A DNA stretch of 44,934 nucleotides, counting the filler, from Jimgerdemannia flammicorona (lineage: Eukaryota), in assembly GCA_003990765.1 (NCBI GenBank). It is 2 parts of 2 records of this genome, joined end to end, with 100 filler letters (N's around TTAATTAATTAA, not from the genome) between each part and the next. Parts side by side here need not be neighbours in the genome. Positions count along the whole stretch, not along the records: positions 1 to 22,424 come from RBNJ01001284.1; 1 more part is not named here. One strand, given 5' to 3'. Numbering within the stretch: the first letter of the stretch is position 1; the number at the start of each line of letters is the position of its first letter. A program made the translations under genes and the position numbers. The notes beneath the pieces are model-generated. The model had not been told where the DNA came from. It saw only the letters and a list, made by a program, of their open reading frames with translations, and made no database searches. Shown in pieces: positions 11,748 through 22,524 of this stretch.

Positions 11748-11815
11748 GCAACCCACATTAAAAGGAGGCACACAAGCTGCTTCCTCCACCTTCCCACGAC
11801 GCCCGGCCCGCCCAC

Positions 11816-13075
11816 ATGGACCCCCCATTATCCACCCTCAAACGCTTTGACCACCAAGTCGCCGGGCACGACTCCCTGTTGCAGCACCCGACCTCAGACC
11901 TGTTGGTCGTAAAGCCGTGCAGCGTCATCGAACGCGAGTTCTACGAGAGCGCCCGGACACGACCAGAAGTGGCTGAGTGGTTGCCCGAGTTCTTCGGGTA
12001 CCTTAGGATTGCGTCAGATGAGGAAAAGAGATTGTTGGGTAGGAAGGTGAAAGCGGAGGAGACGGAAGACGGAGTGGTTGGCAAAAAGATTGTGGGGATG
12101 TCGTTGAATCTGACGGGGCCGGATGATATCCTTTGTGTAATTCTGAACTTGCGCTCTCACCGCGCTCTTGTCATGCAACCGTCTCGTATAACATCCCTTA
12201 ACAAACCCCTGCAAACACACTATATCTGCTTAGAGAATATCGTTCACGGCTTCAAGCACCCCTGTGTGATGGACCTCAAGATTGGCACGCGCCTTTACAG
12301 TGACGACGCCTCCGATAACAAGCGCCACCGGATGCTCGACAAGGCCGCCAAAACCACCTCCGGAAGCCTGGGAATCCGGATCACAGGCATGAAGGTAACT
12401 CGCGGGATCAGGCATGCGCACGCGACACACCTCTCGTAGCTCACATACCTGTTCCCTAAATAACAGGTCTTTGAACCCACCTCCAACTCCTACACCGTCT
12501 ACACAAAACCTTTCTGTAAATCTTTCACACCAACCACCATCCTCTCGGGCTTCCTCGCCTACTTATTCCCAACCTCCGCCGCATCTGCCTCCATCCCCTC
12601 CCTCGACATCGCCGCAACATCTGTCGTTCCCGTCCCTGCCGACACAGACACACAAATAACCGCACGCGCGCCGATCCCCCCCGCCAAGAAGCGCTGGATT
12701 ATGCGCCGGTTCGTCGATGACCTAGAGGAATTGCACGAAACGGTCGAGGCAGCGCATGGGTTGCGCATGTACGGGAGCTCGTTGCTGTTTGTGTATGAGG
12801 GCGATCCGGAGGCGTTGGAGTGCGCGTGGGTCGCGGTTAAGGAGAGGCAGAGGAGGGAGGAGGAAGAGAAGAAGGAGGAGAAGGAGGAGGAGGAGAAGGA
12901 TGACGAGGAAGAGAGGGAACCGAAAATTATGGATTTGAAGATTATCGATTTTGCGCACTCGAAGTGGTTAGATGAGAGCGCCGGGCCGGACGAAGGAATT
13001 GTATTTGGGGTGGGAAACGCGATCAAGATGCTCAAAAGGTGCCTGGAAGAGCAGAAGAGGGAGAAGTATGTGTGA
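11816..13075 (+). CDS. ARG82: Inositol polyphosphate multikinase (Arg82/Ipk2/IPMK family), ~364 aa; exons 11816-12125, 12219-12394, 12467-13075
   Basis: HQVAGH, YICLENI, PCVMDLKIG (PxxxDxKxG), SSLL and IIDFAH motifs. The GT-AG intron 12395-12466 restores the frame. Intron 1 is AT-AC. Confidence 0.88.
12126..12218 (+). other. U12-type (minor spliceosome) AT-AC intron, 93 nt
   Basis: 5' site ATATCCTTT, branch site TCCCTTAAC (12194-12202) about 16 nt before the 3' CAC. Removal gives GPD-D-YICLENI in frame. Confidence 0.85.
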
Positions 13076-13861
13076 ATGAGTGGTTTGACGGAGGGGTAGA
13101 GGAGAGGGTACGGATAGAGTTGAAATCACAGTGCATGATAATCGGAACAAATATGTTCGAAACATTGATTTGTTAATTGCCCAATCTCTGGGGATATCTG
13201 ATCAAATTTGCCAGCTGGGGGATCTGATCTTGGCTTGTGATGTTGTAGAAATAAGTGGTTGCTGGTCAAAATTGGTCGTTCGCAAGGCAAATTCGACCGG
13301 CCCTATCCTCACCAGATGCTCGTGCGCTATGTTCGGAGCGCCAAGCAGTGGGTACAAAAGTGATAAAGTCCCCTCTCCCATAGGTGACACCGTTTCCGTC
13401 ACGAGATTGCACTATCGAGACAAAGAAGTAATAAACTCAATGATCTTAGTAACAAGAATCATCGAGATAAATATGTAGAACTCAAATGACCTCGGTAACG
13501 TTTATGTCAAGAGAAAGCAAGACAGCCACAAAGGGAATCGAAGTCCAGTAAACATACAAAGAATAGATGAAAGCGTGGCGACGAAAACACAAAAGCAACG
13601 TGATATAGGCCAATCCGACATAACATTCATTAGGTGAGCAAAATGGTCTTATAAGCAGAGAAAAAAATAGAAAAAACAACAAAACAAACAGTCCCTCTCT
13701 CTCAAGCCACACAACATCTCCAGCGACGACGCCGTATAGCCAATCGATATACAGCTCATCGGTACCGCACCACACAGTCTACAATCACACCTCGAAGCAC
13801 CTTTGCAAGAGCACCCCAACTCGCATAATAGCACCACCCCTCACACCCCTCTCGCCAATCT

Positions 13862-15054
13862 TTACTCCCGTCTGAGATTGTCGAGCCTCGCCTGCAGTGC
13901 GGCGTCGTCCGACATCATGCCCTCGGCCTGAGGTATGCGCTCGGCGGCTGCCGCCGAGCTTTGCTTCTGCTTGATGCCCGTGGGGGCGTCGACGAGCTGG
14001 AAGTGGGGGGGGGAAGGCAGGGACGGTGAGAAACCGACAACGCCGACAAAAACTTCGCACATACAGCACAAGAAAACCCAACACAACACAACACAGCGAC
14101 GCACCTCCTGGTTCAGGTCGATACCAATCTCGTCAAGGACTTTGTTGACGATCTCCTCGCTCTCCTCGGCGTCATCCTCTTCCTCCATCACGTCGTCAAT
14201 CACGTCGTTCATCATCTCCTCCTTCATGTCCATGATCTCAGATTCCCGCTCGAACTCCATCATGATGTTCTGAATCGCAGGGAGGTTCATCTGCCGGTTC
14301 ATCGACGACATGGCTTTCGTCGCTCCTTTCATCGCTTCCGCCATCTGCTGATTAGAGCGGAGTGTCTGGATACGGGGGAAGGGGGGTAGGGACGTGTGTA
14401 GAAAGGTGTGAAGTTATCCAAACAAACGAGGATGAAGTATCTTAAAAGGGTGTAAACCAGAATGGGACCGAGTGCTAACCTGTATGCGTAGGCCCACGGC
14501 CTGCAGTTGTGTCTTCATTTGGTAGAACTTTTGGATATATCTTCGCGTCCGAACCAGATCCTTGGCCATGACCTTGCACGCGCTCTGCAATTACGGAAGT
14601 GGGAGGGAAGATGGTGTGAGGGTGAAGCGAGCACGGATTTGGAGGTGGACGGTGAGGTCAATAGTGTCGCCATGATTGCAGACCCTGGTAATGGATTATC
14701 GCCGAGTTCGAAATGTGGGTAGTCCGTGTAGAATCCAAGACCACATCTCCAGAGTAGCTACATATACGCATACGCAGCCATCCGAAAGCCTACCTCCACA
14801 AACCGAACACCGTCAAAACATCTCCAACAGCCAGCTGTCCCACGGAAAACAACAAAAAAAAAAAAAAAAAAAAAAAAAAGACAAACCAGCTGATTCGCCT
14901 TGGCGGTCTTCTTGATGTCGGAGATCAGCTTCTTCTCTTGCGCCTCCAGCTTCACGCGCTCCCGGTCGAGCTCCCGCTGAGCCTTCTGCAGGCTCCGCTG
15001 GTGCTGACGCAACATCTCGGCGGGGGTCTTGCGGCGGCCAAAGAGGAGGTCCAT
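13862..15054 (-). CDS. DID4: ESCRT-III subunit Vps2/Did4 (CHMP2A), 222 aa; exons 15054-14887, 14584-14480, 14365-14105, 13996-13862
   Basis: MDLLFGRRKTPAEMLRQHQR, KVMAKDLVRTRRY, MAEAMKGATKAM and the C-terminal MIM-like DDAALQARLDNLRRE. Three phase-0 GT-AG introns. Confidence 0.97.
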
Positions 15055-15766
15055 TGCTTATTCGTCGTAAGTGTGGAGTATGGAGGTGAGGTTGTAGAGA
15101 TGGAGCCATGGGCTTGTTGATGACACTCGGCACGTCATGCTCATATGGCACGTGATACGTGACTACTTCATGACTTCAAAGTGGCACGTGTCGCCGATAA
15201 CAATCCCAATCGCACAAGGACCCTTCGCATACGTCTACACCAAGTTAGCAGGATTGACCCGTGTTGGTATTTTCGAACCTGTCCCATCGCATTTGGCCCG
15301 CGCGTTTATGTGTGCTGACTATACTTGGACCCTATCTCGCGCGTTCGGTGTTATTATGGATCCAGTGTCTTTGTTGTTACTCGCTACCTTTTCGGCGATA
15401 TGCTGGAGTCCACGTCATATTGGCCGAGTTTGTAGTATGAACTGTGGGAGGATGTGGACGGGCTGGGTGGTGGCTGTACGAATAAAAACAAATTTTCCTT
15501 TCCAGAAGAGCAACCTTGCCCATTATTCATCTGAACAACTTGGATCAGAGAAGACCTTTAGATATTATCTTTCTTTTTTCATGAATGGAACACAAATTGA
15601 AAAGGAAACAGGACGACCGCCTGTAAAAAGTTATTCAGTCGTTCGAGGATGGCGGTTTCCTTCTTGTGTTTTATATATCCTACTAAATATTCGCCCCCTC
15701 CGAAAAGCTCGCGAGTCGTCTAGAGCTCCGAAACCCGACTTCGAGCTCGATCCCGCAGAAAGACAC

Positions 15767-22424: not shown

Positions 22425-22524
22425 NNNNNNNNNNNNNNNNNNNNNNNNNNNNNNNNNNNNNNNNNNNNTTAATTAATTAANNNNNNNNNNNNNNNNNNNN
22501 NNNNNNNNNNNNNNNNNNNNNNNN
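22425..22524. other. Assembly gap: 44 N + TTAATTAATTAA six-frame stop linker + 44 N
   Basis: Directly visible; 100 bp in total. Confidence 0.97.

Follow-up and report, generated by a model that had tools for sequence, protein, structure and literature searches.

The inositol polyphosphate multikinase gene (Ipk2/IPMK) of Jimgerdemannia flammicorona is interrupted by an AT-AC intron that is missing from the public gene model. The gene lies on the + strand of a 44,934-nucleotide stretch of DNA, filler included, referred to throughout as the window. Assembled contigs show that the intron (intron 1; 12126-12218, +) is excised at exactly 12125^12219, giving a 364-aa kinase. We put at roughly 85% the probability that intron 1 is a genuine and old U12-type AT-AC intron of Endogonales Ipk2/IPMK, and that the reading frame open across it is accidental.

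Gene structure and sequence of the intron

The coding part of exon 1 (11816-12125, +) comprises 103 codons and one further nucleotide; it was delimited by its open reading frame and translation, with RNA contigs starting at about 11811. Intron 1, as read from the sequence, is 93 nt long and in phase 1, splitting codon 104 as G|AC, the codon 14 before the proline of PxxxDxKxG, and its excision yields GPD-DYICLENI. Exon 2 (12219-12394, +; 176 nt) encodes the hinge strand (YICLEN) and PxxxDxKxG, and its span of 59 codons is also found in IP6K1-like and other fungal proteins. A 72-nt GT-AG intron follows (intron 2; 12395-12466, +), which contains an in-frame stop and served as an internal control, and the coding part of exon 3 (12467-13078, +), likewise assigned by reading frame and translation, carries the SSLL and IDF motifs up to the stop. 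Were intron 1 kept, the product would have 395 aa.

Both halves of the gene match PF03770. PxxxDxKxG, SSLL and IDF are all present and the gene groups with IPMK, apart from IP6K: in a 51-row tree the spliced protein fell with Mucorales orthologues (100/99), and the IPMK clade was separate from IP6K/Kcs1 (100/100). The best solved relatives, by sequence and by fold, were yeast Ipk2/Arg82 and human IPMK (PDB 2iew, 2if8, 5w2h; sequence E 1.8e-26, fold E 5.9e-18), while kinase activity in the present protein is predicted. By domain, motifs, tree and fold match the gene is an Ipk2/IPMK, and the name given to it in a previous reading of the sequence alone (the sequence-only reading) is upheld by PF03770, the tree and the best matches. 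That reading had also forecast that gene predictors would read through the intron, and a public 395-aa protein labelled Jimgerdemannia flammicorona (P0005) is identical to the retained reading, 31-aa insert included; a second public model of this species skips the region in another way. Further along the window, at about 13862-15057 (-), lies a multi-exon gene convergent with the kinase, which we take from its looks to be ESCRT-III Vps2/Did4. At 22425-22524 two 44-N runs end contig C1284, and what lies beyond is other DNA.

Intron 1 opens with a 5' splice site of the U12 type, ATATCCTTT (12126-12134, +), which matches RTATCCTT, as expected of this class, and is complementary both to the 5' end of U11 and to the AAGGAGA box of U6atac, each taken from this genome. 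A search of both window strands found no other copy of this 9-mer. The branch site TCCCTTAAC (12194-12202, +), of which the + strand holds one copy, was predicted from its motif and pairs with GUAAGGA of the genome's own U12. It differs from UCCUURAC by one mismatch, C replacing the first U, and the same variant is listed for the minor intron of mouse Ip6k2 (PMC6717393). By motif position the distance from its candidate branch adenosines to the 3' end is 17-18 nt, within the range of about 10-20 nt looked for with sequences near TCCTTRAC. The intron ends in CAC, lacks any AG dinucleotide and is free of stops in frame.

Donor, branch site, terminal CAC, absence of AG and open frame had all been reported by the sequence-only reading and were confirmed, though they are not equally special. 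Simulating 300 contigs of 22.4 kb under a first-order Markov model, with both strands searched, never gave the joint signature of donor, branch and AC. Among 20,000 shuffles with motifs and base composition fixed, however, AG was absent in 3.5% and the frame was stop-free in 38%, so that these two traits are less special; at a chance of 0.38 given a length divisible by three (3n), the open frame is not remarkable.

None of the seven further RTATCCTT words in the window has a branch site at the usual distance, apart from one with such a site 312 nt away. An acceptor 2 nt downstream (12220) was considered and rejected: it shifts the frame and is absent from the RNA contigs. A genome-wide search with the AT-AC pattern gave 91 matches, against 39 with a reversed control, but duplicates and repeats are among them and the 91 are therefore unusable as an intron count. 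Exon-joining at 28 distinct loci (30 fetched) was discarded as an unsound baseline for stop-free introns. Contigs C1090, C2039 and C6601 each hold two AT-AC minor-intron-like matches a few kb apart, which points to a possible clustering of minor introns.

Splicing in RNA and the minor spliceosome

Splicing was assessed in four runs (X1-X4) of the seven listed, all in the form of assembled contigs; X1 and X2 were only guessed to be RNA, and both are without intron 2. The junction predicted from the sequence, 12125^12219, was present with AT..AC ends in spliced contigs from three of the four runs (depth 641 in X1, 238 in X2 and 6 in X4), and the contigs of X3 leave it uncovered. From X2 came, in addition, a further haplotype with the same joint (depth 172), diverging by 5-11% over two pieces. 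This haplotype, seen at window 11815-12126, represents another species, genotype or paralogue in the sample. Intron 2 was spliced in all four runs, with a depth of 0 inside it and no retained contig, and the signal is therefore not genomic DNA.

One X1 contig crosses unspliced intron 1 at a depth of 234, compared with 641 for the joint, which corresponds to ~27% retention, a coarse measure taken from contig depths only. Retained intron 1 was found in none of the X2 and X4 contigs, a weak observation since contigs drop rare forms. X1 departs from the window by one base inside intron 1 (12165), with the frame still open, and by a 12-nt deletion at 13100 in the 3' UTR; it is therefore probably another isolate or allele.

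The genome was searched for components of the minor spliceosome. U11 scored 65.4 bits, above its Rfam cut-off, and 13 of 14 U6atac matches were above theirs. U12 was recovered at full length with 46.3 bits (E 5.6e-6), below the 53-bit cut-off, with its branch-pairing GUAAGGA intact. Rfam gave no U4atac match in the genome at E 0.001, but a candidate found at a looser threshold (L084; G000:C5115:12259-12383) scored 39.3 bits, below the Rfam cut-off, contains an Sm site, and would pair with the genome's own U6atac over 16 bp in stem II and 7 bp in stem I. The binding energy of this pair was -23.4 kcal/mol; 200 shuffles gave -9.1 +/- 3.4, and none reached so low a value. The label given by cmscan is U4, a member of the same clan (31.4 bits), yet the candidate's 5' arm pairs with U6atac. 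Another candidate, L007, the best of 5 + 2 hits from two U6atac-derived patterns, was rejected because it lacks an Sm site and is not matched by Rfam at E 5. Among proteins, an SNRNP25-type domain was detected at 41 bits, and a match to CENATAC was marginal (26.7 bits over 31 of 330 positions, at the start of the protein).

Thus the four snRNAs that the sequence-only reading had expected, U11, U12, U4atac and U6atac, each have a gene in this genome, two of them (U12 and U4atac) below cut-off yet full length and with their pairing elements. U6atac is present in 13 copies above cut-off, as against one each of the other three. In one of these copies, L003, the AAGGAGA box is damaged and pairing with U4atac is poor (-10.4); many of the U6atac copies are therefore probably pseudogenes or retrocopies. 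For the related Bifiguratus, the listing in PMC11347168 gives only U11, U12 and U6atac. Since Rfam misses L084 at its cut-off, U4atac may have escaped detection where it has been reported absent in this group.

The AT..AC joint in RNA, the motifs and the four snRNA genes bear out the assignment of intron 1 to the U12 type, and from the motifs, the snRNA genes and the established mechanism we infer that the minor spliceosome cuts it. U11 and U12 would recognise ATATCCTTT and the CCTTAAC branch, U6atac would replace U11 at the donor, and the first suitably spaced AC would be the acceptor. Splicing would be somewhat leaky, as is usual among minor introns. The 3n, stop-free state would be an accident of length drift without conserved design, and any longer protein would be a by-product, tolerated since its insert lies in a loop with a more than tenfold range of lengths across the family. 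The position of the intron would be ancestral at least to Mucoromycota.

Competing readings and the longer protein

Type II AT-AC introns, which are cut by the major spliceosome, are known (PMC1557818), and ten other loci, described below, seemingly carry one at this very site. Removal of intron 1 by that machinery, or by both, is nevertheless very improbable: ATATCCTTT has C at +5 and lacks the G found there in type II introns (PMC2831892), the U12 branch is at its usual distance, and the genome holds the four minor snRNAs. We give still less credence to the 93 nt being coding, as in the public 395-aa model, with the motifs present by chance. P0005 does include the 31 residues and X1 does contain the retained RNA; P0005 is itself a prediction, however, the spliced form dominates wherever 12125^12219 is covered, and the spliced contigs already refute a coding reading. 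The intron signature, moreover, was never obtained in simulation, and a 22-row alignment contains no homologue with a segment resembling the 31 residues, in keeping with the expectation of the sequence-only reading that orthologues would lack the insert.

A more substantial rival holds that retention is a regulated switch producing a 395-aa IPMK that differs in activity, location or partners. In X1 the retained contig stands beside the spliced one while intron 2 is fully spliced, the X1 allele stays stop-free in spite of its difference at 12165, and the lack of a retained contig in X2 or X4 may mean that the level varies by sample. A model of the retained form (pTM 0.85; pLDDT above 90 for residues 141 to 230) keeps the kinase core and places the insert, as a hairpin of medium-to-low confidence, five residues before the hinge. 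The loop that holds it ranges from 24 to 401 residues (median 68; 140 of 153 proteins measured) and would have 61 residues here when spliced and 92 when retained; given this variable loop and the kept core of the model, a 395-aa protein might work. Against a switch, the open frame is kept in only one of 31 orthologous read-through frames, the other 30 stopping or shifting, the orthologous U12 intron of locus L044 is 86 nt and so not 3n, and a stop-free frame has the appreciable chance already given. Unspliced U12 transcripts of mammals are usually held in the nucleus and degraded (PMC4615840), and minor splicing in Rhizophagus is unlinked to proliferation according to Larue and Roy (PMC10639083). 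U12 introns in general show raised retention, those of mammals being retained about twice as much as their neighbours (PMC4615840); the level in X1, against none in the neighbouring intron, exceeds this roughly twofold excess, as far as contig depths alone allow the comparison. On balance we regard a regulated switch as unlikely. A 395-aa protein is possible, and that it is made or selected is unsupported, as is the control point proposed in the sequence-only reading, with retained RNA in one of three junction-covering runs and the open frame kept in one of 31 orthologous frames.

The intron site in other fungi and in IP6K

Of 35 homologous exon-1 frames, 31 run into [DNH]-I-L-[FLSP] at the end of exon 1. 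This motif is the read-through of a phase-1 ATATCCTT donor and has a background of 13 in 57,414 residues. Of the 31 frames, 29 terminate within a further 4-35 residues, another passes into exon 2 with a frame shift, and a single one remains open in frame; some exon-1 frames may end at a contig edge, and the ratio is a guide only, because the search, restricted to frames of 56-282 aa and using a profile partly built from such short frames, favours truncated ones. Frames with the read-through include models named Umbelopsis nana and Phycomyces blakesleeanus and a member of the Pilaira cluster. At L044, which is sister to Funneliformis in the tree, the 86-nt U12 AT-AC intron is predicted at the same base. 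As read from these sequences, the donor signature is met repeatedly at this codon in the Mucoromycota.

Six models (Dentiscutata, Entrophospora, Apophysomyces ossiformis, Pilobolus, Pilaira and Syncephalis) are without the conserved strand after the site, an indirect sign, as if the predictor had jumped to the next AG. No intron was found at the site in the Mortierella-like loci L043 and L046, in the Conidiobolus frame P0131, or in frames P0168 and P0169. A Mucorales-like exon-1 frame, P0183, ends in E-D-Q-V-H-T, which fits a GT donor 2 nt past the usual site and is perhaps a second, independent shift to GT-AG.

Minor introns are established in non-Dikarya fungi, and Jimgerdemannia flammicorona is among the species surveyed (PMC10639083). 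Reported numbers of U12-type introns are 205 in Rhizophagus irregularis and 249 in Basidiobolus meristosporus, about 4 in Rhizopus and 20 in Phycomyces (PMC10639083; PMC2846911). A minor intron in an Endogonales fungus is thus by itself expected, and intron 1 has its donor, branch, phase-1 position and snRNA set in common with the others. Unlike those of the survey, it is missing from the public model and is 3n and stop-free; a survey based on annotated introns would miss it for want of the intron in that model.

At the orthologous site, 36 metagenome loci were examined. Ten of them (L053, L055, L058, L060-L066) appear to contain an intron of 49-67 nt at the identical base, starting AG|ATAAGT and ending in TAC, whose removal restores K-D-(S/L)-x-VLEN. 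In all ten the donor follows the U1 consensus apart from +1, with A+4, G+5 and T+6, and seven of the ten introns are not 3n. At L060 and L066 the frame cannot be restored with VLEN intact by any GT/GC-AG pair; such pairs exist at the other eight loci, but they are poor sites that differ between loci. Mean identity of the AT-AC intron was 0.78 across the ten loci, compared with 0.59 for the next intron in the eight loci where that intron could be delimited. The 3' half of the AT-AC intron contains, ahead of its 3' end, a conserved element, about TCG-Y-CCG-Y-GTA-Y-T-Y-AT, and has a branch-like word that does not conform to CTRAC; the element may help recognition by the major spliceosome.

Six of the ten loci were placed in the tree, where they are IPMK orthologues forming one clade (100/99), and a gene neighbouring these loci matches DUF6535. 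The DUF6535 family and the proteins of these loci are, we presume, basidiomycete and probably Agaricomycete, so that by tree and neighbour the ten loci look basidiomycete-like. Because they are close kin they count as one event. In the relatives L067, L071-L074 and L076 a GT-AG intron lies 2 nt further on, and a protein matching its spliced product exists; an AG acceptor likewise stands at +2 in L056 and L057.

Basidiomycota are reported to be without minor introns and minor snRNAs (PMC10639083; PMC11347168). Lin et al. (2010) hypothesised that U2 AT-AC introns descend from U12 AT-AC introns in which positions +5, +4 and +6 have changed, and that they are trapped thereafter; in their study, 87 of 87 converted U2 introns ended as GT-AG (PMC2831892). 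The ten loci resemble known type II AT-AC introns such as those of SCN4A/SCN5A (PMC1557818), whereas intron 1 is of the U12 type, and they fit a conversion from U12 AT-AC to U2 AT-AC in which the pair is probable and the splicing predicted. The study of Lin et al., all of whose conversions ended as GT-AG, showed no orthologous AT-AC/AT-AC pair (PMC2831892), which this site would supply. The direction of conversion is assumed from outgroups, and the rival explanation is an independent gain of an intron at the same base. The literature consulted, mostly without subscription papers, mentioned no minor intron in a fungal IPMK and no fungal orthologous U12/U2 AT-AC pair.

Human and mouse IP6K1, IP6K2 and IP6K3, which belong to the same PF03770 family as the window gene, are minor-intron genes of the GT-AG subtype (PMC6717393); human IPMK does not appear in the minor-intron gene list in the supplement of that paper. 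IPMK was not found in the supplement of PMC7507305 either, but as this lacks the control gene PROX1 as well, it says nothing on IPMK. The exon ends listed for the IP6K1-3 minor introns (ACA; ATC or ACC) are compatible with the same codon being split in phase 1 (PMC6717393). In an IP6K1-like/IP6K3-like alignment three of 702 position-phase pairs were compatible, the window site being one of the three, and the span to the next conserved boundary, GMxV, is 59 codons in IP6K-like proteins, as here. Placed in this way, from triplets and non-mammalian stand-in proteins and not from mammalian DNA, the minor intron of mammalian IP6K1-3 probably lies at the same codon. Unlike intron 1, those introns are GT-AG, 1.1-5.1 kb long and in the IP6K paralogue (PMC6717393). 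The Kcs1/IP6K paralogue of this genome has no intron at the site, and a shared origin therefore needs reciprocal losses.

To a wider reading of these comparisons we give slightly less than even odds: that the position predates the split of IPMK and IP6K and has been kept in two U12 forms, GT-AG in mammalian IP6K1-3 and AT-AC in the IPMK of Mucoromycota, and that in Basidiomycota, after loss of the minor spliceosome, it became a major-spliceosome AT-AC intron and a GT-AG intron shifted by 2 nt. Were this so, U2-type AT-AC introns of mushrooms would become testable as relics of minor introns.

At this site the public models of many early-diverging fungi are wrong, reading through the intron here, lacking the hinge strand in six species and being truncated in two, and minor-intron counts and IPMK sequences of these fungi are therefore affected. 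The ten loci, if they are what they seem, would provide a direct orthologous pair for a conversion treated in the literature as hypothetical and rare. A position shared with the IP6K minor intron, if true, would date the intron before the duplication of the two kinase families.
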